Assembly (NCBI GenBank): GCA_048571215.1
Contig: CP182352.1
Coordinates: 1,440,001-1,504,000, forward strand
Length of the DNA stretch: 64,000 bases
Direction: 5' to 3'
Origin: Halarcobacter sp.
Lineage (GTDB): Bacteria; Campylobacterota; Campylobacteria; Campylobacterales; Arcobacteraceae
The position numbers and the translations under genes were made by a program. Shown here in pieces: positions 20,109-36,062 of this stretch. The first letter of the stretch is position 1. Each line of letters opens with the position of its first letter. The notes beneath the pieces were generated by a model. The model searched no databases and was not told the DNA's origin. It saw only the letters and a list, made by a program, of their open reading frames with translations.

Positions 20109-21408
20109 TATAATAAATATTATAAGGATTGATATAGATGGAAAAGAAAAAACAATTTGATTTTAATGAAGCTGTACAAGATTTACTTGCAGGTAAAAAT
20201 ATCAATGGTAAAGATGGAGTACTTGCTCCATTAGTAAAACAATTAGTTGAAGCTGCTTTAGAAGCAGAATTAGATTCTCATATAACTCAAGATGTATTTG
20301 CAGGAAATAAAAATAGAAAGAATGGTAAAAGCTCTAAAACAATAAAATCAACAAGTGGTTCCTTTGAATTGAATACTCCAAGAGATAGAACAGGTTCTTT
20401 TGAACCACAACTTGTAAAGAAAAACCAAACAACAATGTCTAATGAAATAGAAGAAAAGATATTATCTATGTATGGCTTAGGATTAAGCTATAGAGATATT
20501 ATAAAACATATTGAAGAGATATATCAAATACAATTATCAAGTGCAACAATAAGCACTATTACAGATAAAATTATAGATAAGGTAAAAGCTTGGCAAAGTA
20601 GACCTTTAGAAGCTATTTATCCATTTGTATGGCTTGATGCGATACATTATAAAATAAAAGATGGTGGGAAGTATGTGAGTAAAGCAGTTTACACAGTTTT
20701 AGGGATGGGAATTGATGGTAAAAAAGATATATTAGGATTATATTTATCCCAAAGTGAAGGAGCAAACTTCTGGCTTAGTGTTCTTACTGATTTAAATAAT
20801 AGAGGATTAGAAGATATACTAATTGCATCAGTAGATGGTCTTAAAGGCTTTCCTGAAGCTATTAAAACAATATATCCAAATACCGAAGTACAACTTTGTG
20901 TTGTACATCAAATTCGTAATTCATTGAAGTATGTAGCTTCTAAAGACCAAAAAGAGTTTATGAGAGATTTAAAACTTGTTTATCAAGCAACAACAAAAGA
21001 ACTTGCAGAAGATGAGCTTTTAAAACTAGATGAAAAATGGGGGAAAAGATATCCCATAGTACTTCAATCTTGGCAAAATAAATGGGAGAATTTATCTTAT
21101 TATTTTAAATATCCAAAAGAGATAAGAAAGATTATGTACACTACAAATATTATTGAATCTGTACATAGGCAATTTAGAAAATTAACCAAAACAAAAGGAG
21201 CTTTCCCTAATGAGAATTCACTTTTAAAATTGTTGTATATGGGAATATTAAATGCAAAAGTAAAATGGACTCAGCCAGTGCATAATTGGAGTTTAACAAT
21301 CTCCCAACTTGCTATATTTTTCGAAGGGAGATTGGATAATTATTTAGAGTTGTAACAAGTATGGATTTGTTACTTTAGGTGACTTGACACAGATTTTTGA
21401 ACGGTCTC
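20079..21408 (+). mobile_element. IS256-family insertion sequence with 8-bp target duplication AAGTCTTA
   Basis: Imperfect IRs GGGAGTGTTAGAAAATCTGTGTCA and (reverse complement) GAGACCGTTCAAAAATCTGTGTCA; AAGTCTTA at 20071-20078 and 21409-21416. Confidence 0.92.
20138..21355 (+). CDS. IS256-family (Mutator-type DDE) transposase
   Basis: PRDRTGSFEP, WLDAIHYK, DGLKGF, QLCVVHQIRNS, YTTNIIES. Confidence 0.95.
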   Translation: MEKKKQFDFNEAVQDLLAGKNINGKDGVLAPLVKQLVEAALEAELDSHITQDVFAGNKNRKNGKSSKTIKSTSGSFELNTPRDRTGSFEPQLVKKNQTTMSNEIEEKILSMYGLGLSYRDIIKHIEEIYQIQLSSATISTITDKIIDKVKAWQSRPLEAIYPFVWLDAIHYKIKDGGKYVSKAVYTVLGMGIDGKKDILGLYLSQSEGANFWLSVLTDLNNRGLEDILIASVDGLKGFPEAIKTIYPNTEVQLCVVHQIRNSLKYVASKDQKEFMRDLKLVYQATTKELAEDELLKLDEKWGKRYPIVLQSWQNKWENLSYYFKYPKEIRKIMYTTNIIESVHRQFRKLTKTKGAFPNENSLLKLLYMGILNAKVKWTQPVHNWSLTISQLAIFFEGRLDNYLEL

Positions 21409-21439: not shown

Positions 21440-23269
21440 TTACAGCTCTTCAAGTTTTTTATCATACTCATGTATGATTTCATCAAGTTTTAATTGACTC
21501 TCTTCCAATAATTCAAATTTTTCTTCAACCTCTTTTTCATATCTTAAAATTATTTGAGATAGTTCTATTATCTTACTATTATCACCTATATTTGAAGCTT
21601 GTATAAGTTCAGCTTGCTCTTTTTCTATCAAATCTTCTAACTCTATAATTGCATTTTCTAGTTTCTCCACCTCTTTTTTAAAAGGAGTTGCCAATTTATT
21701 TTTCTCTTGAATTAAAGAAGCTCGTAGTTTTTTGTTCTCTTTTTTATTTACTTTTGGGGCAATTTTTACTTTCTCTTCATCCTCTTCTTCATCCCAACCA
21801 ATCTTTTCTAAAAACTCATCATATGTTCCATCAAAATAATCTGCACCATCTTTTGCGAACACAATCAACCTATCGCAAACTTCTCTTAAAAGTTTTTCAC
21901 TGTGAGTTACAATTATACAAGAGCCTGCAAAGTTTTTTATAGCTTTAGTTAAAGAATCAATAGATTGCATATCCAAGTGATTTGTAGGCTCATCTAGAAA
22001 CAGCAGATTTACATCTTTTGCTAAGATTTGTCCTAACATCACCCTACTTTTCTCTCCCCCTGATAATAAAGATATTTTTTTCTTAACATCATCTCCACTA
22101 AACATCATAGAACCACAAATGCCCCTAACTGTAGCTTCTGGTAATTTTGAGTTTGAAACATAAATTTCATCCATGATATTATTGTTTGGATTAAGATGGG
22201 ATATATTAGTTTGTCCAAAATGACCAAATGAAGTAGTTCCATGATAATCCACTGTTCCATTTATTTGTTTTAATTCACCTGCAATAACATTTAATAAAGT
22301 TGATTTACCCTTACCATTTTTTCCAATAATTCCTAAGGTTTCCCCTTTTTTTAAAGTAAATGAAATATCTTTAAAAAGAATATTGTCTTTTGTATATCCA
22401 AAAGATAAATCTTTTACATCAAGTAAAACTTTTGCTGGTGTGTCTTTATAATTAAAATCAAAATCTATAGTAGCCTCATCTACAAGGGAATCCATATTAT
22501 CCATTTTTTCCAATAACTTAACTTTTGACTGGGCTTGTGATGCTGTTGAAGCCCTTGCTTTATTTTTAGCTATAAATTCCTCCAACTCTTTTCTTTTTTT
22601 ATCTTGTGCCTCTTTTTGCTTTTCATAATGTTCATCATTTGCTGCTAACTGCTCATAAAACTTATAAGTACCACCTGATAAAATAAATAAAGATTTTCTA
22701 ACAATACCCATAGTATGTGTTGTAATACTATCCATAAAATCCCTATCATGGGTGATTAAGATAACCTCTCCATCAAAGTTCTTTAAAAATATTTTCAACC
22801 ATCTTAAAGATAAGATATCTAAGTAGTTTGTAGGCTCATCAAGAAGTAATAGGTTTGGTTCAGTAATCAATAGTTTAGCAAGATTTATACGAATTTGATA
22901 ACCCCCAGAAAAAGACAAAGGGTCTTTTTCTAAATCTTCATGGGAAAAACCTAAACCAAATAAAATCTTCTCAACCTTGTAAATACTAAACTTGTCATCA
23001 ACACTCAAAGCAAGAGCAGTTTCATCCCTAAGTGTTTTCTCACTAAATTCCAAGTGTTGTTTAAGTGCCCCTATTTTATACCCTTTAGGTATTAAAATCT
23101 CACCATCATCAACTACCTCTTCACCAAGTATTAGTTTAAAAAGTGTAGATTTTCCTGTACCATTTCTCCCTACAAGCCCTATTCTTTGTCCTTGTCCTAA
23201 AATAAGATTCAGATCTGTAAAAAGTGTTTTCTCACCATAATGTTTTGAAAGATTTTTTAGTTGTATCAT
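21440..23269 (-). CDS. ABC-F family ATP-binding protein
   Basis: Two ABC cassettes (GRNGTGKS, GKNGKGKS, DEPTN twice), no TM segment, coiled-coil tail. Confidence 0.92.
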   Translation of the reverse strand: MIQLKNLSKHYGEKTLFTDLNLILGQGQRIGLVGRNGTGKSTLFKLILGEEVVDDGEILIPKGYKIGALKQHLEFSEKTLRDETALALSVDDKFSIYKVEKILFGLGFSHEDLEKDPLSFSGGYQIRINLAKLLITEPNLLLLDEPTNYLDILSLRWLKIFLKNFDGEVILITHDRDFMDSITTHTMGIVRKSLFILSGGTYKFYEQLAANDEHYEKQKEAQDKKRKELEEFIAKNKARASTASQAQSKVKLLEKMDNMDSLVDEATIDFDFNYKDTPAKVLLDVKDLSFGYTKDNILFKDISFTLKKGETLGIIGKNGKGKSTLLNVIAGELKQINGTVDYHGTTSFGHFGQTNISHLNPNNNIMDEIYVSNSKLPEATVRGICGSMMFSGDDVKKKISLLSGGEKSRVMLGQILAKDVNLLFLDEPTNHLDMQSIDSLTKAIKNFAGSCIIVTHSEKLLREVCDRLIVFAKDGADYFDGTYDEFLEKIGWDEEEDEEKVKIAPKVNKKENKKLRASLIQEKNKLATPFKKEVEKLENAIIELEDLIEKEQAELIQASNIGDNSKIIELSQIILRYEKEVEEKFELLEESQLKLDEIIHEYDKKLEEL

Positions 23270-23425
23270 ATTGCTCTTTGTTTTAATAAATTTATATTTT
23301 TTTTGAATATGGATTATATTATAATATGGGTTATAGAATAGTTTAGTATTCCTTTTCAGAGCACTTTAATTTTATATTTGACAATTATGTTTAAATGATA
23401 TATATTCATATATAAAGGAGTCATT

Positions 23426-24178
23426 ATGGAAAACTATTTTGATAAAGAGTTTGAATTAAGATTTTTTGAAATGAATAGATTAGGTGAAGCTTCGGCTATT
23501 TCTATATTAACTCTACTTCAAGAAACTGCCGCTGAACATTGCCGATATGCTGGGCATGACCTTTTATCTTTAATGTCTGAAAACCTTGGGTGGGTACTAC
23601 TTGCTGGTGCAATGGAAATGGAACGCTACCCACTTTATAAAGAAAAGATAATTATAAGAACATGGATATCAAAATATCATGCCATTAGGGGATTTAGAGA
23701 AAATATAATTTATGATGAAAACTACAATATAATAGGTAGAGCTAGAGGTTTGTGGGTATTTTACGATATAAAAAAAAGAAGACCTAAAAAAATACACCCT
23801 GATTTTTTAAAAAAATGGTCATCTTGTAAGACAATATCTCTTGAACATGATATAAGTAATAAGATTGAACCTCTTAATTCTTTTGAATGCAAAAAAGAGT
23901 TTAAAGTCAATATGTATGATACAGATACCAATAAACATGTTAATAATCTTAGATATCTACAATGGCTTATGGAATCAATTCCAGATGAGATATTAGACAA
24001 TTACTACTTGTATTTTATTGATGGACGTTTTATTTCAGAAGCTAATTATGGTGATTCTATTTTATCTTTAACAAATAAAGATGTTGAGGAAAACTCTTTT
24101 ATTCATACTATTCAAATAAAAGAAAGTGGCAAAGTTTGTGCTACTGGTAAATCAGTTTGGAAAAAAATACGAAAATAG
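23426..24178 (+). CDS. Acyl-ACP thioesterase (FatA/B-like)
   Basis: LLQETAAEH and DTDTNKHVNNLRYLQW hot-dog motifs. Confidence 0.88.
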   Translation: MENYFDKEFELRFFEMNRLGEASAISILTLLQETAAEHCRYAGHDLLSLMSENLGWVLLAGAMEMERYPLYKEKIIIRTWISKYHAIRGFRENIIYDENYNIIGRARGLWVFYDIKKRRPKKIHPDFLKKWSSCKTISLEHDISNKIEPLNSFECKKEFKVNMYDTDTNKHVNNLRYLQWLMESIPDEILDNYYLYFIDGRFISEANYGDSILSLTNKDVEENSFIHTIQIKESGKVCATGKSVWKKIRK

Positions 24179-24233
24179 GTTTTTCTAGAAGTTGAACACT
24201 TCTATAATCTCGCTTGTACTCACTGCGTAAGAA

Positions 24234-24437
24234 CGCTTTCTTTACTTTTAGTGGTAAAAGTAAAACAAAAGCCACCAGACGCGTTGTTGAAGCTAAAGTT
24301 CCCTCCCACTTCACTTTTTAAAGCTAGCCTGCAAAACTCCTCGAAAAAGTGACATCTAGTCACTTTTCTCTCGTTAGACAGTTTCGGCTTTTTCCGCTTT
24401 AAAAAGCGAAGTACTCGGCTTCAACAAAGTCTGGACT
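24234..24437 (+). repeat. Structured repeat copy B1 (same family as A copies, opposite orientation)
   Basis: Ends match 32256-32497; nested stems CCAGAC..TTGTTGAAGC / GCTTCAACAAAGTCTGG; inner hairpin AAAAGTGAC-atcta-GTCACTTTT. Confidence 0.8.
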
Positions 24438-24473
24438 AAAATTCCCTAGCCTTGAACTTTCTCATACTATTTG

Positions 24474-24848
24474 AGTATTACACAAATCCAAACAAAATGG
24501 TACCAAAAAATGAAAAGGTCATTATCCCACCTTCCCGCATTTGAGAAGCCGAGTGTTTATTTTTGCTTTTCGGATGTAATCCTGCTTGCAGGCAAAAGTT
24601 TTTTAACTGTCTGAGTGTCAAAAACGTAACTAACTTACGTTTTAGCGAGTTTTGAAAAACAGAAAAGTGAAATAATAAGCGAGGGAACCTTCGGCTTCGA
24701 AACCCGCGGGATAATTTCTTTGCTACTTTCTTTTTCACAAAAGAAAGTCGGAATAAGTTAAAACGTACTGCAAAAGTTTATTTATACTCAAATATTTTGA
24801 TAATAGTATTACCCAAATATACATAATATATTTATCATTTTGTTAAAC
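24474..24848 (+). repeat. Structured repeat copy A1 with conserved flanks
   Basis: Near-identical blocks at 27276-27503 + 28802-28937, 31899-32220 and 32533-32690; structured core about 24532-24750. Confidence 0.85.
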
Positions 24849-25066
24849 AATAAAATGTTATTTAAAGTTAAGTTTTTCACCTTTAACATACATTATGTAT
24901 ATTAAAGTACTAAATATAAACATAAAATATATATAAAGATTATAACTTATAATAAAAATATATAGAAAAAAATATCATATTATGTAATGTTTTTTCTATA
25001 AAGATGTATAAGATGAGCTTTCTTTGTAAATATATAATAAAGTAGTATATTTAAGTACTTTATTTA

Positions 25067-25095
25067 TATAATGTATATTCAATAAATAGTTAGAC
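25067..25095 (+). promoter_or_regulatory. attI/Pc-like array-start site 1 (TATAAT-N16-GTTAGAC)
   Basis: Same spacing and similar sequence as 29135-29163 and 32868-32896; GTTAGAC is the exact reverse complement of GTCTAAC at 26562. Confidence 0.6.
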
Positions 25096-25109
25096 ACAAA
25101 GGAGTAGTA

Positions 25110-25757
25110 TTGCCATTAAAGCCAGATATAATAGAACTGATTGACAATTATTGTACTAAAGATTTGCCAGGAGATTTACAGTGGCATATTGATAGATTTA
25201 ATTTCATTAAAAATACAGATTTACAAAATAAAATAGGCAGAGCATATTATAGTTCTCGTTATATGAGTAAATTAATGGAAGCACTAAGAGGAACTGGGGA
25301 TGAACTTCATCCATTTGTTAAATTCCAAATATTACAATATGCATCTATTTATGAAGCGGTTATAACTTACTTACTTTGGGATACATTTAAAGAACATGAT
25401 GAAGTAATACAATTACAAACACATAAAACATATAAACCAGTTCATGCTTTAGGAAGTAAAACTAGCATAAAATATGATGGAGAGGATGTTTTCACTTGTG
25501 TATATCGTGATGTAAAAACACATAAAAACTCAATTTCTTTTCCAAGCAAAGTAGATTGTGCAGTTAGAATTGGTTTTTTAAATGAAACATATGCTGAGGA
25601 TATTAAACATATTTATATGCTTAGAAATTTAGCACACATTGAAACAGAAGCTGATAAAAAAATTGAAGTTGAAATTGAACATTCAAAACTAGGATATTGG
25701 AGATTAAAACCTTTTCTTGATGATATTGTAGCTTTTTTTGAAGAAAACAATAGCTAA
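25110..25757 (+). CDS. Cassette-borne hypothetical protein (possible HEPN-like, LRNLAH)
   Basis: 215-aa ORF, TTG start with AAGGAG RBS just after the GTT core. Confidence 0.7.
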   Translation: MPLKPDIIELIDNYCTKDLPGDLQWHIDRFNFIKNTDLQNKIGRAYYSSRYMSKLMEALRGTGDELHPFVKFQILQYASIYEAVITYLLWDTFKEHDEVIQLQTHKTYKPVHALGSKTSIKYDGEDVFTCVYRDVKTHKNSISFPSKVDCAVRIGFLNETYAEDIKHIYMLRNLAHIETEADKKIEVEIEHSKLGYWRLKPFLDDIVAFFEENNS

Positions 25758-25776
25758 TGAACATTAAAGAGATAAT

Positions 25777-26577
25777 ATGACAATTGAAGATATTCAGAAG
25801 CTAATTAACATTTATAATAAAGGTATAAAAACCTATAAAGAAATGTGCGACCATATTTTAAAACAAGATACAAAAATTAATAATGAATTATTTTTACTAT
25901 TATTAGCAGTATCAGACTCAATGGAATCATTAGCAATATTAGGCAACTTCAATAAAATGAGAGATTGTTATGTTGTCTCAAGAACAATTTATGAAACTAC
26001 TTTAAATATTCTGCTTATTTTATCCACAGATTTTGAATCAATGGATGAAATGACTAAATATACATATGATGAAATTGAGCAAGAAGATTCTCGTTCAATT
26101 ACTACCGACAGTGAAGCAGTATTTTTTGCTTTTGATGGAATAAAGCATACTGTTGGATTTGCTAAAAATAATCCTTTTAAAGTAAGAAATCCACGTTCTT
26201 GGACAAAACATAAAATACAGAATAGAATAAATCTTATTGATAAAAAATATGGAAAAGTTGTATCTCGTTCTTTACAAGTAGCTCACTTGACAATTTATAG
26301 AACAAGCTCAAATATTGCTCATGGAACTCTTTATGGAATGCTTCAAGCTATGGGTTTAATTCATGAAAAAGAGATCAAAGAGTTTACAGATATTAGTATG
26401 ATAGAACATAATTTTCAAGTAATTACTACGTTATTACTAACTATATCTCAAAGTGTTTATGGATTGACATATGCATTAGATAAAGAACTAGGGTTAGAAG
26501 AATTTGAAAAAAGTTTTTATACTAGTTTAGAAGAATTTATAAATGAAGGCAAACAATTATTGTCTAACAAAACCTAG
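25777..26577 (+). CDS. Cassette-borne hypothetical protein (DUF5677/HEPN-like)
   Basis: SRTIYE and YRTSSNIAHG motifs resemble DUF5677-type proteins; stop lies inside the attC-like site. Confidence 0.65.
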   Translation: MTIEDIQKLINIYNKGIKTYKEMCDHILKQDTKINNELFLLLLAVSDSMESLAILGNFNKMRDCYVVSRTIYETTLNILLILSTDFESMDEMTKYTYDEIEQEDSRSITTDSEAVFFAFDGIKHTVGFAKNNPFKVRNPRSWTKHKIQNRINLIDKKYGKVVSRSLQVAHLTIYRTSSNIAHGTLYGMLQAMGLIHEKEIKEFTDISMIEHNFQVITTLLLTISQSVYGLTYALDKELGLEEFEKSFYTSLEEFINEGKQLLSNKT

Positions 26578-26632
26578 GAGAGAAATAAGTTACCCTAGCG
26601 GGCAAACTTATTTCTCAAGTCAAACGTTATAA
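26562..26632 (+). other. attC-like recombination site 1
   Basis: GTCTAAC...GAGAAATAAGTT-acccTAGCgggca-AACTTATTTCTC...GTTATAA; 71-bp imperfect palindrome between co-oriented genes. Confidence 0.8.
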
Positions 26633-26643
26633 ATAAGGAATAA

Positions 26644-27204
26644 TTGATGAATAAAAAATATTCAATTGTTATAGTGATTTGTTTTTTAATTTTTTGGTTT
26701 GTAAAACTTTTAGATTCTACGGGAACAATAGATACTATAAAATTAGCTATGAATGATAAATTTAATTATAAAATAGAAACATTACTTACACAAGCGGATG
26801 ATGAGGATATGGTAAAAATATTAAATAGTTTTATGAAAAAAGTTCAAAAAGATTATGCCAATAAAACTACAAGTGAAACGGTATTATTAAGTGCAAATCA
26901 AAAAAACAAACATGTAGTGTATAAATTTCAAATGAATTATGATGACCTATTACAATCTGTACCAAATAAAAGAAAGTTATCAAATAAAATTAAAAATTTA
27001 GTATATAAAGATATATGTTCCCAAGGAATATTATCCTTTATTGTTGAAAATAAGGCAGTAAGTTTTGAGTATATTTATTATGATTCTTTATCAAAAGAGC
27101 AAAATAGATATTTGATTCAGAGTGATGATTGTAAAATATGGGAAGATAATAATTTAGTATTTTCATTAACTAAAAAAGCGAAAAATTTTATAAATAGTCT
27201 TTAG
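26644..27204 (+). CDS. Cassette-borne hypothetical membrane-anchored/exported protein
   Basis: N-terminal hydrophobic segment; bounded by GTTATAAATA (26626) and its reverse complement TATTTATAAC (27211). Confidence 0.7.
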   Translation: MMNKKYSIVIVICFLIFWFVKLLDSTGTIDTIKLAMNDKFNYKIETLLTQADDEDMVKILNSFMKKVQKDYANKTTSETVLLSANQKNKHVVYKFQMNYDDLLQSVPNKRKLSNKIKNLVYKDICSQGILSFIVENKAVSFEYIYYDSLSKEQNRYLIQSDDCKIWEDNNLVFSLTKKAKNFINSL

Positions 27205-27544
27205 ATATAATATTTATAACGAATCAGTGAAATAACACCCCCAGAGAATGAATTTCCACTTTTATAATAATTATTGAGTATCACACCAATTCAAATAAAA
27301 TGGTATCAAAAAATGCAAAGGTCAATTTCCTACCTTTCCGCATTTTAGAAGCCGAGTGTTTATTTGTCTCTTTTGAAAACAAGTGACTAAACTGTTTGAA
27401 GCGTAAAGAAACGTTCTGGGAGAACGTTTTAGCAAGTTTTTAGGCACTCAAAAGGGATGAATAATAAGCGAGGGAACCTTCGGCTTCGAAACCTGTGGGA
27501 TAATTCGTATAATAAAATATTGGAAATATGATAGTATATTTTCA

Positions 27545-27748
27545 TAGAGTTCAATAGAAGATGATATATTGTGTGGGTGGTTGAAGCAATTAAAAATAAT
27601 TTTAATTAGCTTGTAAAGAAGTTCAATAGTTATACTTCAAATTTGAGTGGCAACAAGAACAGTTTTATAACTAGTTCGTATTTACGAGTCTAAAGTTTGT
27701 ATGACGAAATATCAGGTAGGAATTTTATTCCTACCCTAACGAACTCTT
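27545..27748 (+). ncRNA. Predicted IS110 bridge RNA
   Basis: Closing stem AGAGTTC/GAACTCT; two internal-loop hairpins carrying segments that match the target (TGTGGGTGG, AAAGAAGTT) and donor (GTGGCAA, TACGAGT) junctions. Confidence 0.75.
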
Positions 27749-27772
27749 TATATTAATACAAAGGTTCTAGAT

Positions 27773-28756
27773 ATGTATTCTATCGGATTAGATATAAGTA
27801 AGTCAACAATTAATATTTATATCCCTATCAATGATTTAGATATTCAAATATCAAATAATTTGAAATCACTTAAAGGTTTTTATTCTAAGTTAAAAAAACT
27901 TTATAAAAAAGATATAGATAAACTTGTATTTGTTTTTGAACCTACAGCTAATTATTCCTTTTTAATTAAAAAGTTTTGTTCTGAAAAAAGTATACACTGT
28001 TTTATTGTTAATCCAAAGAAAAGTGCTAACTTTGCTAAAGCAATTGGTCAAAGAAATAAAACTGACCTTTTAGATGCTAGAATGTTATCTCAGATGATAG
28101 TTACTGCAAGAAAAAATCAGATTAAAATACCCATTATTAATCCTTATGCCGAGGAATTAAAAGAGCTTATTACATATTATAAATTTATATCAAAAATTAA
28201 AACTCAAAATAAAAATCATTTGGAAGCTTTAGTTTCAAAAGATGCTTCATCTATTATAATTAAATCATTAAGAAAAGATATAAAATCATTTGAAAAAAAA
28301 GAAAAAGATATTCTTATTGAGATAAAAAAAGTTATTGCAAAAGACAAAAATTTACATAATGCATTTTTAAATATCCAAACTATAAAAGGCATAGGAGAAT
28401 TATCTTCAATTATATTATTACACCATTTTATACAATATCCTGATACAAATCAAAAGCAAATTGTTTCATTAGCTGGATTAGATCCAGTTAGTAGAGATTC
28501 TGGTTCATCAATAAAAGGAAAAACAAAAATATCAAAATCTGGTTCAAAATTATGTAGGGGTACATTATTTATGGCAGTAATGACAGCGATACAATACAAT
28601 GAAGAATTAAAAATATTTTATAATAGATTAAAAGAGAATGGCAAACATACTACTGTAGCACAAATTGCTGTAATGCGAAAAATGATTGTAATTGCTCACT
28701 CATTATATAAAAATAATAATATATATGACCCTAATAAATTTAAAAGTATATCATAA
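27773..28756 (+). CDS. IS110-family DEDD recombinase/transposase
   Basis: IGLDISK, FEPT, KTDLLDA, IKGIG, AGLDP..DSGSS (catalytic Ser region), AVMRK. Confidence 0.95.
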   Translation: MYSIGLDISKSTINIYIPINDLDIQISNNLKSLKGFYSKLKKLYKKDIDKLVFVFEPTANYSFLIKKFCSEKSIHCFIVNPKKSANFAKAIGQRNKTDLLDARMLSQMIVTARKNQIKIPIINPYAEELKELITYYKFISKIKTQNKNHLEALVSKDASSIIIKSLRKDIKSFEKKEKDILIEIKKVIAKDKNLHNAFLNIQTIKGIGELSSIILLHHFIQYPDTNQKQIVSLAGLDPVSRDSGSSIKGKTKISKSGSKLCRGTLFMAVMTAIQYNEELKIFYNRLKENGKHTTVAQIAVMRKMIVIAHSLYKNNNIYDPNKFKSIS

Positions 28757-29134
28757 ATATTAGATTTAAATATTTTATATTTTATCATTTTTTAAGGTGG
28801 CAACTTCTTTGCTACTTTCTTTTTAGAAAAGAAAGTCGAGAAAACCAAGAGGTACAGCAAAAGTTTATTTACACTCAAATATTTTGAAAATAGTTTTACC
28901 CAAACACAACATAATATATTTATCATTTTGTTAAACTATCAAGATTTTCACCAAATAGTCATACAAAATGATAAGATATTAAGGATATACCTTGATAATC
29001 TAACATAAAAAATGTTCTACTTTTTCTTATATTATTTTGTATTTTATTAAATTTAGACTATTTAAGGCTTATTTGAGCTAATATCTTTACATTTTTAATG
29101 TTAAGATATTAGATGTTTTTATATATTATTTATA

Positions 29135-29163
29135 TATAATGTATTATTAATAAGAAGTTGTAT
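29135..29163 (+). promoter_or_regulatory. attI/Pc-like array-start site 2 (TATAAT-N16-GTTGTAT)
   Basis: GTTGTATGAA (29157) is the exact reverse complement of TTCATACAAC (30370) at the cassette end. Confidence 0.6.
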
Positions 29164-29192
29164 GAACATATAAAATTAACTGAAGAGTATAG

Positions 29193-30362
29193 ATGAACAA
29201 TCATATAGAAATTTTTATAAATAATAAGTCTAATCAAATTCCGAGTAATGATATTGACTATATAAATAGTTTTTTACCATTTTATGCAGATGTTAAAAAT
29301 GACAATATAGCTTATTTATTCGCTTATTATCATTATAAATTTAACAGTTTATTTAGTTTTATGAATTCTAAATTAAATTCTGATAACCATCATTATAATG
29401 CTGACCCAAGTCGAGAACTAATAGCAATAATCGATGACTTAGAAAATGTATCAAGGGAACTGAAAAATACAGAATATAATTTTAACATTGATACTAATTA
29501 TCTAGAAATCATTAAATTATGTAAGACATTTTTATTAGGTAGTGGGGGAAGTCCTATTCCAGATGACTTCAAAAAAATTAATATCATTGAAGCTAAACCA
29601 ATTTTTCACATAAATACAACTATTACAGTTGAAAATGTAAAACTTGGTTTAAAATTAATAGGTGAAGGTTCATATGCACAAGTACTAAAATATAAAGACC
29701 AATTTTACAATAAAACATTTGCTTTAAAAAGAGCAAGACATAATCTTACTGATAAAGAATTAAAACGATTTAGAAGAGAATACGAAAGTATGAAGAGTTT
29801 AAATTCTCCTTATATTTTAGAAGTATACAAGTTTGATGAAAAAGAAATATCGTACATAATGGAATATGCTGATTTCACATTAGCTGATTACATAAAACAC
29901 AATAATACTAAATTAACTTATAATCAAAGAAAAAATATTATAAATCAAACTTTCAAGGCTTTTGAATACTTAGAAAGTAAAGATATACTACATCGAGATA
30001 TTAGTATAAATAATATACTTTTAAAACAATATGATGACTTATTTGTTGTAAAAATTTCTGATTTTGGACTTGTAAAACTAAAAAATAGTGACTTGACAAG
30101 TCAAAACACAGAATATAAAGGCTCACTAAATGATCCAAAGCTAGATATAGTTGGTGGATTTAAGAACTATGAAATACATCATGAAACATATGCATTAACT
30201 AGATTAATATACTTCATTTTAACTGGTAAAATTCGTATAGATAACTATAAAAAAAATGAACAACTAGAAACATTCATAAAAAATGGGATTTCTGATAATA
30301 TAGACCTTAGATATCATTCTATTAAAAAGATGCGAAAAGCTTTTAATGACCTTGTGTTTTAA
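29193..30362 (+). CDS. Cassette-borne Hanks-type Ser/Thr protein kinase
   Basis: IGEGSYAQV, ALKR, RFRRE, HRDISINNILL, KISDFGL; ~140-aa N-terminal extension; no TM segment. Confidence 0.9.
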   Translation: MNNHIEIFINNKSNQIPSNDIDYINSFLPFYADVKNDNIAYLFAYYHYKFNSLFSFMNSKLNSDNHHYNADPSRELIAIIDDLENVSRELKNTEYNFNIDTNYLEIIKLCKTFLLGSGGSPIPDDFKKINIIEAKPIFHINTTITVENVKLGLKLIGEGSYAQVLKYKDQFYNKTFALKRARHNLTDKELKRFRREYESMKSLNSPYILEVYKFDEKEISYIMEYADFTLADYIKHNNTKLTYNQRKNIINQTFKAFEYLESKDILHRDISINNILLKQYDDLFVVKISDFGLVKLKNSDLTSQNTEYKGSLNDPKLDIVGGFKNYEIHHETYALTRLIYFILTGKIRIDNYKKNEQLETFIKNGISDNIDLRYHSIKKMRKAFNDLVF

Positions 30363-30372
30363 GGCGTTATTC

Positions 30373-30442
30373 ATACAACAAAAACGAGGAGACCAATAAT
30401 TTACCCTTGCGGGAAAATTATTGCTCACGACAAACGTTAACT
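30373..30442 (+). other. attC-like recombination site 2
   Basis: ATACAAC...GAGACCAATAATTT-acccTTGCggga-AAATTATTGCTC...GTTAACT; 70 bp, same architecture as 26562-26632. Confidence 0.8.
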
Positions 30443-30461
30443 CAACAGTAAGGAAAATAAA

Positions 30462-31448
30462 ATGGAATCTAAGCATATAATTTATCTTGACACTTCAGGA
30501 TTAAATTATTTAGCTGATAAAGTCAAAAATTTTGATGATTTTTCTAAAATTAAAAATCATTTAAATTTTGAATTCTATTTATCTCCAATAACACTATGGG
30601 AAATCTTACTTAATGGGAATGATGAAAGAAAGGACTACTTAATTTATTGGTCTCAATTTAACTGTGCTAATAATCTAATAAAATCACCAACAGAAATAAT
30701 TTTAGATTTTATTAAATTGGACTGTCCATTAAAGGACAGAAAAGAATTCTATACTGATCCATATACAAAAATGGACTTAGGTATTACTTGGCAGAATATC
30801 CATCGTAAAATTGATAAAACTATTCCAATAGATTTAAATGAACTAAAAGAAAAAACTAAACCAATCAGAGATTTTTCAAAAAAGTTAAAAAAGATAATAA
30901 CTGATATGTGTAACGAAGAATATTCAAACTATAACAACGACCCATTTCATAAAGCTATGTTAAAAGTATGTAAAAATCTTGACTACTCTGACTCTCAAAT
31001 TAGTAAATATGAAAAACTTATAAAAATAGCATTAGTTTTCTTATTTTTCATTATCTGTATTGGAATCGAACTTCAAAATAATTTACTTAGAGCATATTGG
31101 AAAGAACTAAAGATAGAGGACCCATTTGATAAATTAGATTATTTGATAGATAATTATCCAATGTTATTAAATAGAGGACCTTTAATCGAAATGGCTAAGA
31201 TGTCTGATGAACAATTGAAAATGAGTAATTCTAAAAGTAGAGGTCTCCTTCATGATTGTTTTCATGCAATTTATTGTTACTATACAGATAATGTAATTAC
31301 AGGTGACGAACATTTCAAATCATTGAGAGAAAATGAAAAAGATACAATTTTTAGTCGTATTTTAATGACTGAAGAGATAGAACTGATATGGGAAGAAACA
31401 CTAAATGAGCTAACAAATCAGTCAGACTGTGAATTTAGTCCCAAATAA
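30462..31448 (+). CDS. Cassette-borne PIN-like domain protein
   Basis: IYLDTSGL, PITLWEI, HDCFH..., ITGDEHF acidic motifs typical of PIN folds; last codons come from IS sequence. Confidence 0.6.
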   Translation: MESKHIIYLDTSGLNYLADKVKNFDDFSKIKNHLNFEFYLSPITLWEILLNGNDERKDYLIYWSQFNCANNLIKSPTEIILDFIKLDCPLKDRKEFYTDPYTKMDLGITWQNIHRKIDKTIPIDLNELKEKTKPIRDFSKKLKKIITDMCNEEYSNYNNDPFHKAMLKVCKNLDYSDSQISKYEKLIKIALVFLFFIICIGIELQNNLLRAYWKELKIEDPFDKLDYLIDNYPMLLNRGPLIEMAKMSDEQLKMSNSKSRGLLHDCFHAIYCYYTDNVITGDEHFKSLRENEKDTIFSRILMTEEIELIWEETLNELTNQSDCEFSPK

Positions 31449-31794
31449 ACTAAATTTACAGTAAAAATCCAAATTAATTTCCAGAATATCTGATATTTTT
31501 TCTTAAATTTTTTAGATATAAAAATTTTTGTAAAAAATAAACCAAATAAAGTCCAAACACTAAGATATATTCCTCTATATCTTTTGTAATTTGGGTTAAA
31601 TCTTTATTTTTTATGGCTAAACACAGTTTTTTAAACAGAGTTATCCCTATAAGATTTAAAAGTCTTCTAAAATTATATGTAAACATAATAAGAGCATTTT
31701 CACCAAGTACCTTTTCTTTAGAACGAACTAAAAAATGATCCCAACTTAAAGTTCTTTTAATTGTATCATAGAGTGAAACGGAATCTACTTGCAA
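31423..31794 (-). pseudogene. IS1182-family remnant (one end plus transposase C-terminal fragment)
   Basis: TIKRTLSWDHFLVRSKEKVLGENALIMFTYNFRRLLN resembles IS1182 C-termini; terminal CAGACTGTGAA interrupts the attC-like site beginning GAGCTAACAAATCAGT. Confidence 0.7.
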
Positions 31795-31898
31795 AATGTA
31801 TGTTCTACTATTAAAGATCTTTTTTTAACTATATCTTTAGCTTTTTTGCTATTTATTATTATACGAGAGAATTAATCTCCACTTTTAAAATAGTTATT

Positions 31899-32220
31899 GA
31901 GTATTACACCAACAAAAACAAAATGGTACCAAAAAATGCAAAGGTCAATTTCCCCTCTTCCCGCATTTGAGAAGCCGAGTGTTTATTTGTCTCTTTTGAA
32001 AACAAGTGACTAAACTGTCTGAAGCGTAAAGAAACGTGACTAACTCACGTTTTAGCAAGTTTTTAGGCACTCAAAAGGGATAAGTAATAAGCGAGGGTAG
32101 TTTCACCTTCGAAACCTGAGGGATGATTTTTTTGCTACTTTTTTTTTCACAAAAAAAAGTCGAGAAAGTTAAGACGTACAGTAGAAATTTAACTACACTC
32201 AAATATTTTGATAATAGTTT
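31899..32220 (+). repeat. Structured repeat copy A3
   Basis: Aligns along its length to A1 and A2; inner hairpin AAACGTGA-ctaac-TCACGTTT. Confidence 0.85.
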
Positions 32221-32255
32221 TAATTGTATACACCCCCTTGTAGAGCAAAGCTCTC

Positions 32256-32497
32256 CGCTTTCTCACTTTTTAGTTGTAAAAAGTAAGACAAAAAGCAACC
32301 AGACGCTTGTTGAAGCTAAAGTTCCCTCCAGCTTTCTAATTATTTTGTCTGTACCAGAATTTAGTCACTTCGTTCCAGCATCTGACCTGCGGAACGCCTT
32401 CCTAAAAGGTACATTCAGTACCTTTTATCCACTTGAACGGTCCTCGGTCTTCTCCGAAAATAATTAGAAAACTTCCGGCTTCAACAAAGTCTGGACT
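32256..32497 (+). repeat. Structured repeat copy B2
   Basis: Shares CCAGACGC-TTGTTGAAGCTAAAGTTCCCTCC and CGGCTTCAACAAAGTCTGGACTAAA with B1; interior different but self-complementary. Confidence 0.8.
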
Positions 32498-32532
32498 AAA
32501 TACCCTAGCCTCAAACTTTTAGAATGCTTTTT

Positions 32533-32730
32533 AAGTATTACACCAATTCGAATAAAATGGTATAAAAAATGTAAAGGTCCTTATCCTACCTTCCCGCATT
32601 TGAGAAGCCAAGTGTTTATTTATTGTTTCGGAGAAGTTTTATAACTGTTTGAACATTAAAAACACAACTAACATATGTTTTTTCACAGAGAATGCAAATA
32701 TAAGTCTTACTTTTTTCAATAAAAAAGTGA
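32533..32730 (+). repeat. Structured repeat copy A4, internally deleted/decayed
   Basis: CCTTCCCGCATTTGAGAAGCCAAGTGTTTATT matches A1; 3' half degenerate. Confidence 0.7.
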
Positions 32731-32867
32731 ATATTCCAAACTTATTTCTCATAACATTATAATTTACTTAAAAGATATATCTTTCTATAATATTTTTTAT
32801 ACCAATATCTTATTTAAAAGCTTTATTGATTGTGCTATACAATCAGGCTATTTAAGTAATAAATTAA

Positions 32868-32896
32868 TATAATCTATGTTTAATAAATAGTTAGTT
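32868..32896 (+). promoter_or_regulatory. attI/Pc-like array-start site 3 (TATAAT-N16-GTTAGTT)
   Basis: TATAATctatgtttAATAAATAGTTAG matches site 1 TATAATgtatattcAATAAATAGTTAG. Confidence 0.6.
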
Positions 32897-32918
32897 CAAA
32901 GAAAGGAACAGCAATACT

Positions 32919-33536
32919 ATGAATGATGTATATACACAACTAATTACAGTTTTTATGGGCTTTTTTGCCATTATGAACCCTATTGCTAATACAGCAGCAT
33001 TTTCAGGTTTAGTTGGTGATAAAAGTAAATTAGAACAAAGAAAAATTGCCACTAAGGCACTTATAATTACTTTTTTTATAATTCTAGCTTTCTCTATTCT
33101 TGGGAAAGCTATTTTTCACTTATTTGGGATTACTATAGATGCACTTAGGATAACTGGTGGAATTCTAGTATTTATTGTTGGGTATCATATGCTTAATGGG
33201 CATGGCTCTAAACTACATTCTGCAGAGGATGAGTACGAATCTGATTTAGCAGTATCACCTTTAGCTGTTCCACTTCTTGCTGGTCCTGGGACTATTGCAA
33301 CAGCAATGAATTACTCTGCATCTGGTGGGATGGTTGGAATACTAACTACCGTATCTGTATTTGCAGTTTTATGCTTTATAACATTTTTTTGTTTTATTTA
33401 TAGTTCAAATATTTTGTCAGTTATAGGTAAAAGTGGACTTAGTATAGTTACTCGACTGATGGGATTAATTCTTGCTGTTATCGGTACACAAATGATTATT
33501 GTTGGGATAATGACTCTCATCAATAAAATAAGTTAA
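32919..33536 (+). CDS. MarC family integral membrane protein (cassette-borne)
   Basis: IMNPIAN, ITGGIL, PLAVPLLAGPGTIA, TRLMGLIL. Confidence 0.9.
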   Translation: MNDVYTQLITVFMGFFAIMNPIANTAAFSGLVGDKSKLEQRKIATKALIITFFIILAFSILGKAIFHLFGITIDALRITGGILVFIVGYHMLNGHGSKLHSAEDEYESDLAVSPLAVPLLAGPGTIATAMNYSASGGMVGILTTVSVFAVLCFITFFCFIYSSNILSVIGKSGLSIVTRLMGLILAVIGTQMIIVGIMTLINKIS

Positions 33537-33581
33537 CAAGGTGCTGCACGAAAACCAATTATCGTGATCACGACGTTATGC
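33531..33581 (+). other. Short attC-like site 3
   Basis: AGTTAAC...GTG-ctg-CACGA-loop-TCGTG-at-CAC...GTTATGC overlapping the MarC stop codon. Confidence 0.6.
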
Positions 33582-33594
33582 TACAAGGAAAAAA

Positions 33595-34215
33595 TTGAAA
33601 TATCTGTTAGTTTTTATAATCATAATTTTTCTAGTATTATTTTTAAGTAGTGCAGTATTACTTGATACACCTTGGTTTTCTGATAATTTATTAAAATTTA
33701 GAAGTGAAAATAATTTTCCTATTTTTATTGTATTACAAAATATAAAATTCTTTACTTTTTTATTTTTAACAACTATTGTTATATCATATATCCATTATTC
33801 TAGAAAGGTATATGGAAATAGTATTAGAAAAAATGTGATGTTTTATATGGGTATATTTTTTGGAATCAGTATTGTTTTAAATTTGTTGCAAACTTATTAT
33901 TCAATAGTTTCGTCAGAAGAAATATTGAAAGAAATAAGATATTCATCAAATTCATATTTAAAAGGTAAATTAACAATTTCAGACGCAAGGGAAATATATG
34001 CCAAGAATAATATTTTAATTGACTATTATGATTATAATAATACAATTCAAAAATTTAAACCAACTAAACAAGATATAGAATATCAAGAAACTGTACAGTG
34101 GCTTCTATTTAAAAAGAATATAATACCACTAAAAGTAGTATTCTCATTTTTTATATTTATTACTATATTTAGTTTTGGGAATTATATTGCTAATAAAAAG
34201 AATGACAAATCTTAG
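33595..34215 (+). CDS. Cassette-borne hypothetical membrane protein
   Basis: About 4 hydrophobic segments; TTG start with AAGGA RBS right after GTTATGC. Confidence 0.65.
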   Translation: MKYLLVFIIIIFLVLFLSSAVLLDTPWFSDNLLKFRSENNFPIFIVLQNIKFFTFLFLTTIVISYIHYSRKVYGNSIRKNVMFYMGIFFGISIVLNLLQTYYSIVSSEEILKEIRYSSNSYLKGKLTISDAREIYAKNNILIDYYDYNNTIQKFKPTKQDIEYQETVQWLLFKKNIIPLKVVFSFFIFITIFSFGNYIANKKNDKS

Positions 34216-34283
34216 AAGTGAACGTTACCCACCTTCAAAAAAAGAAGATGGGCTTCATTTATTTCAAAAACCGTTTCAAAAAA

Positions 34284-36062
34284 CTATTTTTTCTTAATAG
34301 CCTTCGCATTAGGCAAGTCAGTAATACTTCCGTGGAATATCTCTGCACACATACCTACAGATTCATGTAGTGTTGGGTGTGCGTGAATTGTAAGTCCTAT
34401 ATCTTCTGCATCACAATCCATCTCTAGAGCTAGTGAGATTTCTCCTAGAAGTTCACCTGCATTGTCTCCTACTATAGCTCCACCTATTAGTTGGTGTGTA
34501 TCTTTATCAAAAATAAGTTTTGTCATACCAGAGCCTGCAACATCTGCTGCTAATGCACGTCCAGATGCACTCCATGGGAAAGATGAAACTTCGTAGTTGA
34601 TACCAGCTTCTTTAGCTTCTATTTCACTCATACCAGCAGTTGCAATTTCTGGGAAGGTATATGCGATACCTGGGATTTGTTTTGGTTCAAAGAATACTTT
34701 ATGTCCTGCTATAACCTCTGCTGCTACATGACCTTCATGTACAGCTTTGTGTGCTAACATAGGTCCACCTATGATATCACCTATTGCATAGATATTAGAA
34801 ACCTTTGTTTTCATTTGATTATCAACTTTGATAAAACCTTTATCATCAACTTCTACACCTGTATTTTCTAAACCTATTTTTAGTCCATTTGGTGATCTAC
34901 CCATAGCTACTAATACAGCATCATATGTTTTTGGTTCAGGGGCATTATCACCTTTGAACTCTACATAGATACCATCTTCTTTTGGGATGATTGCTTGTGT
35001 TTGAGTTTTAAACATAAAGTTAAATCTTTTTTCATTTGCTTTTGTATAAACTTTTACAATATCCTTATCAGTTCCTGTCATAACTTGAGGCCCTCTTATT
35101 ACAACATCAACTTCTGAACCTAACTTTTGGTAAACAGTACCCATCTCAAGTCCAATGATACCACCACCCATGATAAGCATTTTTTTAGGAACTTCTTTTA
35201 CCTCTAAGGCATTTGTAGAGTCCCAGATTCTTGGATCATCATGTGGGATAAATGACATTTTAGAGCTTTGAGATCCTGCTGCAATAATACAATTATCAAA
35301 TTTAACAACTGTTTTACCATCATCTTTTGTATGTTCAACTACAACTGAATTTTCATCAATAAAGCTTGCACTACCTTGTATAACAGTTACTTTTCTCATC
35401 TTAGCCATAGCTGTTAAACCATCAGTAAGTTTTTTTACAACTGCACTTTTATAAGCTGCTACTCCTGGTAAGTCAATCTCAGGTTTTGTAAATTTAATTC
35501 CAGCATGTTCTATATGTTCAGCTTCTTCAATCACTTTTGCAACATGAAGTAAGGCTTTTGATGGGATACATCCAACATTTAGACAAACACCACCTAAAGT
35601 ATCATGTCTTTCAACTAAAACTGTATCTAAACCCAAATCAGCACATCTAAAAGCAGCTGAATATCCACCAGGTCCAGCACCAATAACCAATACTTGACCT
35701 TTTACCTCTTTTGCTCCACTTACATCTGTTGGTGTAGCACTTTGTTTTTGCTCTTGTTTTGGTGTTGAATCTTTTGGTTTCTCTTCTGTTTTTTCTTCAG
35801 CAGGAGCAACTGAAGCTTCATCTTCAACTTCAACCTTAGCTATCAAATCACCAGAGTTTACCTTCTCCCCTACTTTTACAAGTATCTCTTTAATCACACC
35901 ACTGTGAGTTGAAGGTACATCCATAGAGGCTTTTTCAGTCTCTAAGGTAATAAGCCCTTCCTCTTCCTCTACAGTGTCTCCAACGCTAACCATTACATCA
36001 ATTAAATCAACATCTTTATCTGCACCTAAATCAGGAATAAATATATCTACAACTTTACCCAT
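34284..36062 (-). CDS. lpdA: Dihydrolipoamide dehydrogenase with N-terminal lipoyl domain
   Basis: ETEKAS lipoyl motif, GAGPGGY, GGVCLNVGCIPSK, HAHPTLHE. Confidence 0.95.
   Translation of the reverse strand: MGKVVDIFIPDLGADKDVDLIDVMVSVGDTVEEEEGLITLETEKASMDVPSTHSGVIKEILVKVGEKVNSGDLIAKVEVEDEASVAPAEEKTEEKPKDSTPKQEQKQSATPTDVSGAKEVKGQVLVIGAGPGGYSAAFRCADLGLDTVLVERHDTLGGVCLNVGCIPSKALLHVAKVIEEAEHIEHAGIKFTKPEIDLPGVAAYKSAVVKKLTDGLTAMAKMRKVTVIQGSASFIDENSVVVEHTKDDGKTVVKFDNCIIAAGSQSSKMSFIPHDDPRIWDSTNALEVKEVPKKMLIMGGGIIGLEMGTVYQKLGSEVDVVIRGPQVMTGTDKDIVKVYTKANEKRFNFMFKTQTQAIIPKEDGIYVEFKGDNAPEPKTYDAVLVAMGRSPNGLKIGLENTGVEVDDKGFIKVDNQMKTKVSNIYAIGDIIGGPMLAHKAVHEGHVAAEVIAGHKVFFEPKQIPGIAYTFPEIATAGMSEIEAKEAGINYEVSSFPWSASGRALAADVAGSGMTKLIFDKDTHQLIGGAIVGDNAGELLGEISLALEMDCDAEDIGLTIHAHPTLHESVGMCAEIFHGSITDLPNAKAIKKK

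Follow-up and report, generated by a model that had tools for sequence, protein, structure and literature searches.

How does a chromosome with a single integron integrase gene come to hold short cassette arrays far away from it, and could such arrays still take in new genes? Here, we address this question for a 64,000-nt stretch of Halarcobacter sp. (contig CP182352.1, positions 1440001-1504000 of a single-contig 3.61-Mb genome with 28.5% GC), referred to as the window. An earlier note on this stretch had described three tandem modules, each composed of a structured repeat, a TATAAT-N16-GTT site and a short cassette array, without any tyrosine recombinase nearby. The three modules are real, with the G of the sites at 25089, 29157 and 32890, and a tyrosine recombinase was matched nowhere in the 64-kb window. 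Based on the comparisons below, the TATAAT-N16-GTT site can be assigned as the integron attachment site attI of this lineage because the same motif adjoins the only integrase gene (intI) of the genome and the sequence in front of it resembles intI-linked spacers. We consider it probable that the modules are intI-less integron heads loaded in trans, which would make them parts of a distributed integron with one intI and about 20 further heads at 10 loci.

The bare TATAAT-N16-GTT motif is a weak marker at 28.5% GC and was dropped as a test motif because its 165 genome-wide matches make it too common. We used a position weight matrix (PWM) instead, covering 28 upstream bases plus GTT, which was seeded by the three window sites and the intI-side region and then converged. 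It finds 21 sites of at least 26 bits and 25 of at least 20 bits in the genome, and no site of at least 20 bits in each of three block-shuffled genomes. The four sites between 20 and 26 bits were left out, as they have no cassette-like genes behind them among the matches listed. Window sites 1, 2 and 3 score 37.9, 35.1 and 31.7 bits, respectively. The 21 sites occupy 10 loci with up to five heads per locus, and all copies within a locus lie on the same strand; five loci point each way relative to replication as judged by GC skew (hand count with an uncertain origin), so there is no bias in orientation. An attI simple site consists of an L box, a 5-bp spacer and an R box of the form GTTRRRY, and all three window sites fit this layout. 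Across the 21 sites, a 7-bp L-like box and a 5-bp spacer are followed by GTT (19) or ATT (2). The L and R repeats of attI are given in a figure legend of PMC8946536.

The only intI of the genome (895245-896189; TIGR02249, 398 bits) is located after guaA, ~570 kb from the window. The top-scoring PWM site lies ~290 bp from its start and points away from it, with attC-bounded cassettes behind (attI at 896493). Furthermore, the 250 bp before window site 1 are 88-89% identical to the spacers between full-length intI and attI in the relatives G024 and G019. Among all fetched loci, a non-random sample picked for various reasons, 16 distinct sites have intI directly upstream and 74 do not. No intI adjoins attI in the window, so its modules are not complete integrons; with 21 sites of at least 26 bits and a conserved upstream spacer, they are also more than the mere GWT insertion site of attG sites and SALINs.

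The cassette ends lead to the same assignment. We searched attC sites with two nhmmer models of our own, built from five short and two long attCs, which replaced a heuristic finder that proved too noisy (206 matches). The models match 22 short-family and 8 long-family attCs in the genome and miss some, e.g., the one at 33531 and several recognised by eye. All 30 matches lie 375-9254 bp behind a same-strand attI, counting the 21 sites and three degenerate ones, and the zones of up to 10 kb behind attI make up 2.3% of strand space. As far as these models reach, every detected attC array in the genome has its own attI head; the seeds were drawn from attI-headed arrays, and attC families confined to other places would escape. 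The first cassette of the intI-linked array (896493-896680) is gene-less and strongly palindromic, and is repeated with 99% identity behind an attC of the same array (898384-898569; L232). Two further attI-like sites lie inside this array, at 899415-899722 and 904735; one of them is degenerate and directly follows an intact attC, as though a head had entered the array in the manner of a cassette.

If the sites accept cassettes, the sequence should change right behind the G, and comparisons between species are consistent with this. Twenty regions around the window's downstream gene were fetched from 19 relatives; eight contain an attI-like site and none contains any of the window's seven cassette proteins. 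At the window locus of G002, three repeat-plus-attI modules carry entirely different genes, and the same layout on one G002 contig argues against an assembly artefact. In eight same-locus head comparisons, the last 70 bp before the G are 93-99% identical in seven cases and 0.71 in one, whereas the 42 bp after the G are only 31-55% identical in seven. Two cassettes were found in a different position elsewhere with the junction at G/TT: the marC cassette behind window attI 3 stands behind an attC in G002 (94%), and the first cassette after genome site 2822898 stands second, behind a complete attC, in G015 (99% over 300 nt). A metagenome scan yielded at least 124 loci with 128 sites, or 117 after merging identical windows. 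Among the matches listed, 110 of 110 downstream sequences differ (sites with 60 nt on both sides), the information content drops after position +5, and none of 654 pairs with at least 90% upstream identity (identical windows merged) shares its downstream sequence. The comparisons thus locate the cassette junctions at G/TT, with gene content appearing to turn over exactly there while relatives keep the platform. The idea of a multi-attI platform put forward in the earlier note therefore holds: the sites are assigned as attI, 21 of them occupy 10 loci, and intI lies elsewhere.

The arrays of the window are bordered by an acyl-ACP thioesterase gene on one side and by an opposite-strand gene on the other, which we take to be lpdA from its sequence. 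Here, a platform denotes the intI-attI intergenic region (with the presumed promoters Pint and Pc) without intI, and A repeat the structured repeat in front of it. The features, with open reading frame abbreviated as ORF and insertion sequence as IS, are as follows.

24201-24812, plus strand: A repeat 1, one full ~600-bp unit, with a 167-nt hairpin in its left half (24272-24438)
24813-25088, plus strand: platform 1, 88-89% identical to the G024 and G019 spacers
25067-25095, plus strand: attI 1 with TATAAT, L box, 5-bp spacer and R box; crossover presumably at G 25089
25089-26625, plus strand: cassette 1a with two ORFs, 25110-25757 (no family) and 25777-26577 (weak DUF5677)
26562-26631, plus strand: complete attC, short family, R' G at 26626 (nhmmer E 3.8e-14)
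26626-27229, plus strand: cassette 1b, ORF 26644-27204 (no family), ending in an attC left arm (27214-27229)
27230-27263, plus strand: linker, a separate short repeat, here at the left end of a half A repeat
27264-28899, plus strand: A repeat 2, right half only, split by IS110
27506-28804, plus strand: IS110 with transposase 27773-28756 (NF033542, above cut-off)
28900-29163, plus strand: platform 2 and attI 2 (G 29157), of a family with six genome copies of at least 26 bits, 86-96% identical to the other five
29157-30435, plus strand: cassette 2a, Ser/Thr kinase gene 29193-30362 (best PADLOC match Stk2, E 6e-36)
30373-30441, plus strand: complete attC, short family, R' G at 30436 (nhmmer E 8.1e-14)
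30436-31422, plus strand: cassette 2b, ORF 30462-31448 (faint PIN match below cut-off), with an attC left arm (31408-31422)
31423-31865, minus strand: IS1182-like remnant within the attC left arm; the same element end follows an attC left arm elsewhere
31866-32700, plus strand: linker remnant and A repeat 3 (right half, left half, partial right half)
32701-32896, plus strand: platform 3 and attI 3 (G 32890), 56-72% identical to other platforms
32890-33574, plus strand: cassette 3a, MarC-family gene 32919-33536, 94% identical to the cassette behind attC in G002
33531-33581, plus strand: probable attC, short and weaker, R' G at 33575, RYYYAAC...GTTRRRY by eye, -6.4 kcal/mol, unmatched by the nhmmer models
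33575-34224, plus strand: cassette 3b, ORF 33595-34215 (no family), with a long-family attC left arm (34201-34224), followed by the end of the presumed lpdA on the other strand

The distance from the repeat end to the G of the site is 277, 258 and 190 bp in modules 1-3, respectively. Platform 1 is less similar to the host's own intI-linked spacer (0.66, with a shuffled baseline of 0.58) than to the spacers of G024 and G019. The array cassettes share one orientation and are attC-bounded, with two strong internal attCs according to our hidden Markov models and a weaker one recognised by eye and by folding; the G002 homologue of the weaker attC (33531-33581) has a longer loop. The attC-like hairpins reported to separate two cassettes in each array are present, but cassette 1a carries two ORFs with no hairpin between them, so array 1 holds three genes. 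Likewise, the terminal attCs described as decayed or interrupted are indeed broken, more specifically reduced to left arms, and the arm of array 2 is cut by the IS1182-like remnant from 31423 on; the arm at 34201-34224 resembles the attC at genome position 899285 when compared by eye. The linker, taken in the earlier note for a continuation of the terminal attC, is instead a separate short repeat with 24 genome copies. A repeat 2 is split by an IS110 that does not appear in the earlier note. The kinase cassette (29193-30362) followed by the faint PIN-like gene is possibly a phage-defence pair. Contigs of sequencing run X2, which may be the source sample, are identical to the unique window parts and leave the repeats unbridged; runs X5, X6 and X10 contribute small shares, X10 being RNA and available as contigs only. 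Upstream of an ABC-F gene, the window also carries a Mutator-family (IS256-type) transposase gene (20138-21355) that is absent there in G006, G016 and G012.

Several related loci were observed in the same comparisons. In G019, a complete integron (L033, 5621-6837) is found between a response regulator and an ABC-F gene, a few kilobases away from where the window has its arrays; G024 and G005 show an orphan attI at that place. In G015 (L036, G015:C22), an orphan array behind another housekeeping gene ends in a 3' fragment of the window's downstream gene, which is 88% identical to the window copy, compared to 82% for G015's own copy; this suggests that the array was transferred together with flanking DNA. 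In G022 (L054), a short palindrome connects an internal head with the initial 36 nt of a thioesterase gene that resembles the one beside the window arrays.

The A repeat is a ~600-bp unit that occurs singly or in tandem of up to three in 35 blocks of the genome. The co-occurrence of site and repeat gives a mixed picture: 16 of 21 attI sites are preceded by a same-strand A repeat, while 19 of 35 blocks stand without an attI behind them. Among 40 A-repeat loci from named genomes (Arcobacter and Halarcobacter), 31 are true and 29 have room downstream; seven of these 29 carry attI (two of the seven overlap, and the records may overlap the compared relatives) and 22 do not. Among the matches listed in metagenomes, 52 sites have at least 600 nt upstream. 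Within 1.4 kb, six of these show intI, two show the repeat and 44 show neither one; short intI fragments are present in three of the 44, and 65 further sites had too little sequence. In the same sample, orphan heads outnumber intI-linked ones ~8:1. Tandem heads without the repeat also occur in G016, G022 and metagenome contigs. The proposed tie of each mini-array to a structured repeat is not supported by these counts, and by its distribution the repeat is best described as a frequent but optional neighbour of attI.

The A unit folds far better than its shuffles, with z scores of -6.5 as DNA and -5.1 and -4.6 as RNA. In 42 distinct copies of the left hairpin, which come from few subfamilies and were compared with our own script, 22 of 46 bottom-strand pairs show at least two Watson-Crick types (no tree or shuffle control), and 102 cells are G-T vs 9 A-C. 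This covariation fits folded bottom-strand DNA or RNA made in the intI direction. The left and right halves of 16 full units are uncorrelated (Mantel r 0.17, p 0.11; within the right half 0.69, p 0.0005), which suggests that the repeat copies recombine. A reading of the hairpin as attC and of A units as cassettes was rejected: the outer stem is GAC/GTC, the flank is conserved and there is no turnover after the stem. An attI-like AATAG/TT at the A-unit boundary may be chance or an intI remnant. A fragment beside the repeat in L103, considered as integrase, matches a generic C-terminal motif over 46 residues with 46% identity and is not shown to be IntI. Rfam has no match near the gathering score in window 23000-35000, repeat plus platform gave no match in plasmid and phage collections, and the 14 largest clusters of proteins encoded beside the 31 repeat loci include no recurrent enzyme. 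The repeat is found at the same loci in several species. It is a separate, undescribed structured element.

Smaller elements accompany the repeat. Thirteen of the 24 linker copies precede an A right half and 11 are solo; five of the solo copies have a second short motif no more than 80 bp away, and for random positions the share with such a motif inside 1.5 kb is 2.5%. At 2555871-2560917 (L006), 807486-811129 and 3395448-3396801, a short GGGGACAG-type motif is clustered together with linker copies and remnants of the IS110 right end. One such cluster immediately precedes a RAYT-like gene (78.3 bits against a cut-off of 80) that seems frameshifted near its 3' end, and a linker copy is found 2.5 kb upstream of the Y1 gene at 2560411. 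REP elements flank their HUH gene; no A modules stand beside this sole Y1 gene, and the association of linker and RAYT-like gene is a lead, not a mechanism. Four identical IS110 copies (window 27506-28804; genome 1705060-1706358, 2521360-2522658 and 2826475-2827773) are all inserted at the same A-repeat point, and three more distant ones (63%) lie beside other A blocks; the junction of the window copy scores as a hybrid promoter (27486-27513). The end of the IS1182-like element follows an attC left arm in six of six cases (window 31423; genome 632415, 900502, 960354, 1937602 and 2825881), and in three the remaining attC follows its other end. Another copy carries DUF772, and neither Pfam nor NCBIfam gave a match for the window fragment. 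Hence, the element appears to be an IS that targets attC.

Beyond the host, 22 of 25 genomes of the genus match the attI pattern with one mismatch and 14 have at least two exact matches; the reversed pattern has no match in 23 genomes and one in two. With a stricter exact pattern, matches occur in 17 of 32 further family members and, in other families of the order, in 10 of 268 genomes. Full-length intI is present once in seven of the 25 genus genomes and broken in five more, never twice, and at differing loci among relatives. The 5' end of intI aligns better than all 30 shuffles in 6 of 22 orphan sites, and four of these translate directly to a 13-codon intI remnant that stops where the A-repeat end begins. 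Platform families are ~60% alike between and 82-98% within families, and some are closer to intI-linked spacers of other species (0.89-0.94) than to that of the host. The platform of window site 2 reaches only 0.70 to its best intI-linked match, its family has none above 0.73 among the 16 found, and every copy of this family has a different first cassette. This combination makes the strongest case that capture can do without intI in cis.

Taken together, the multi-attI architecture is real and family-wide, and the comparative evidence for capture at intI-less heads is good. Each module would be an integron head minus its integrase gene, comprising the intI-attI spacer with its presumed promoters, attI and a short array. 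Sequence comparison shows that the heads derive from intI-linked spacers of the same family, with six of them retaining about 13 initial intI codons joined to the A-repeat end. After the loss of intI, they very probably kept capturing cassettes by attI x attC recombination at G/TT, and the IntI acting in trans could come from the host gene or from an integrase that passed through the lineage. TATAAT within attI may serve as the -10 box of a cassette promoter, so that each short array would be expressed alone; a promoter consensus scan gave 73 matches vs 70.8 expected, i.e., chance level, and TATAAT is conserved in the site. Avoiding the expression gradient of a single long array, as suggested in the earlier note, would be a hypothetical benefit. 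The A repeat, restricted to the lineage, might take the place of intI and would be dispensable for capture. It probably insulates the head by terminator-like hairpins, and its homology could let heads exchange and stack in tandem, truncating the last attC of the preceding array. A more far-reaching version seems unlikely to us: a selected distributed integron with one integrase and about twenty independently promoted heads, in which the undescribed 600-bp structured repeat stands in for intI from the first codons on. In that version, the orphaned intI promoter would drive transcription of the repeat into a structured RNA (alternatively, the repeat would work as single-stranded DNA in folded form), and the repeat would bring heads to further loci.

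Loading in trans has to be weighed against several observations that speak against it. ATT, CTT or GGT replaces GTT at some sites, all three terminal attCs of the window are truncated to left arms, and IS remnants are common. One orthologous pair of heads (genome 963110 and G002) shares its first cassette unchanged. In the single-contig relatives G012 and G023, attI is matched exactly at four places per genome and intI is matched in neither. Host IntI keeps its catalytic residues and has six private substitutions at positions invariant in ten relatives, one of them a proline just before the catalytic tyrosine; thus, its activity may be impaired. In the intI-remnant test, all three window platforms fall short, and sites 1 and 2 show only a decayed look-alike at that distance. 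One rival reading is a collection of fossils, in which heads were loaded while their own intI was present, were then transferred horizontally or lost intI by deletion, and now undergo only homologous exchange and decay. The low similarity between platform families, several of which are closer to other species' intI-linked platforms than to the host's, and the varying position of intI, broken in 5 of 25 genomes, fit this explanation, as do the drifted look of host IntI, the truncated attCs and the IS damage; moreover, complex class 1 integrons are described as exchanging their arrays through homologous recombination (PMC7056807). We nevertheless regard it as rather improbable since platforms at shared intI-less loci are 93-99% identical with a different first cassette, one platform family combines many first cassettes with no close intI-linked member, and another species carries, in second position, a cassette 99% identical to one that stands first at an orphan site.

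Alternatively, A repeat and attI might form one mobile composite that is spread by a single-strand (HUH/RAYT-like) enzyme or by IntI and plants capture sites. The same-strand repeats in front of 16 of 21 sites, near-identical platforms at distant loci (96-98%), the bottom-strand bias of the covarying hairpin, the solo linkers near the second motif with one cluster upstream of the RAYT-like gene, and internal platforms that follow an intact attC like cassettes (genome 899415; L115) are consistent with such an element. Yet attI is missing from most host blocks and from most loci elsewhere, the repeat is missing from 44 of 52 metagenomic sites, and no A repeat borders the RAYT-like gene. In addition, no enzyme recurs among the 14 largest protein clusters, the plasmid and phage collections gave no match, and the repeat occupies the same loci in several species. 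We therefore find a composite quite unlikely. Finally, the sites could be dif-like Xer sites or mere AT-rich promoters and the arrays ordinary variable genes. The AT-rich genome, the many raw motif matches and the TATAAT promoter box invite this view, as does a likeness to dif. It is highly improbable given that the site abuts intI in 16 distinct fetched loci, attC-bounded cassettes follow it, copies within a locus face the same way and junctions fall at G/TT. Loading of intI-less heads in trans is thus the reading that we prefer.

How does this arrangement compare to known systems? A CALIN is a cluster of attC sites without an integron integrase (Cury et al., 2016, PMC4889954). With at least two attCs (26562, 30373 and probably 33531) in short arrays and no intI nearby, the window arrays are CALINs by definition. 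According to the passages cited, half of the CALINs lie in genomes that encode IntI (PMC4889954), and an action of IntI on them in trans has been proposed (also PMC9668308; 10.1101/2025.06.18.660453). The same passages describe a search for attI of classes 1-3 only and treat split-off CALINs as donors cut off from Pc (PMC4889954). Here, in contrast, every attC match lies behind attI and a spacer, so the arrays would be acceptors too, about 20 per genome. The host guaA integron is a sedentary chromosomal integron (intI, Pint, attI, Pc and array, as laid out in PMC8946536), with which the window arrays share the attI layout, attC-bounded cassettes and a single orientation. That source models one platform with an expression gradient, whereas the host has a single intI alongside 21 attI in 10 loci, with arrays of one to few cassettes and no bias relative to replication. 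In104-type complex class 1 integrons of SGI1 share two tandem attI with different cassettes and homologous array exchange; as described in PMC7056807, In104 is a single mobile resistance element with intI1 in cis, unlike the chromosomal loci here with up to five heads, several unrelated platform families and a distant intI.

Cassettes away from intI, inserted by IntI in trans, are also a feature of attG sites and SALINs (10.1101/2022.09.11.507474). The passages cited define attG by a GWT consensus only, whereas each host site retains a complete L-R simple site plus as much as 250 bp of integron spacer. Restarting expression inside an array is what the internal units found here would share with gene-less promoter cassettes (10.1101/2023.11.21.568050; PMC6557892). 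The latter are attC-bounded as described there; the internal units end in attI and would accept new cassettes. Repetitive extragenic palindromic (REP) sequences with their TnpA-REP/RAYT proteins, as presented in PMC8266576, resemble the A repeat in being dispersed, palindromic, non-coding and IS110-targeted. They differ in that the A unit is ~600 bp long and does not flank the RAYT-like gene, to which only the short linker is linked. A full-text search, with most subscription journals and all supplements outside its reach, found no publication on many dispersed attI heads or on the A repeat, and the arrays may figure as CALINs in IntegronFinder tables of paper supplements.

CALINs are more numerous than complete integrons, and both where they come from and what they serve for are debated. 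They are usually read as donors or relics because attI is unsearchable in most taxa. The 21 natural attI variants together with one integrase family make the question of capture directly testable, and the 600-bp repeat merits a separate study as an undescribed structured element. If the heads capture and express cassettes, integron activity in Arcobacteraceae would be underestimated by current tools, and the comparisons presented here suggest that many supposedly dead integron remnants could still take in new genes.

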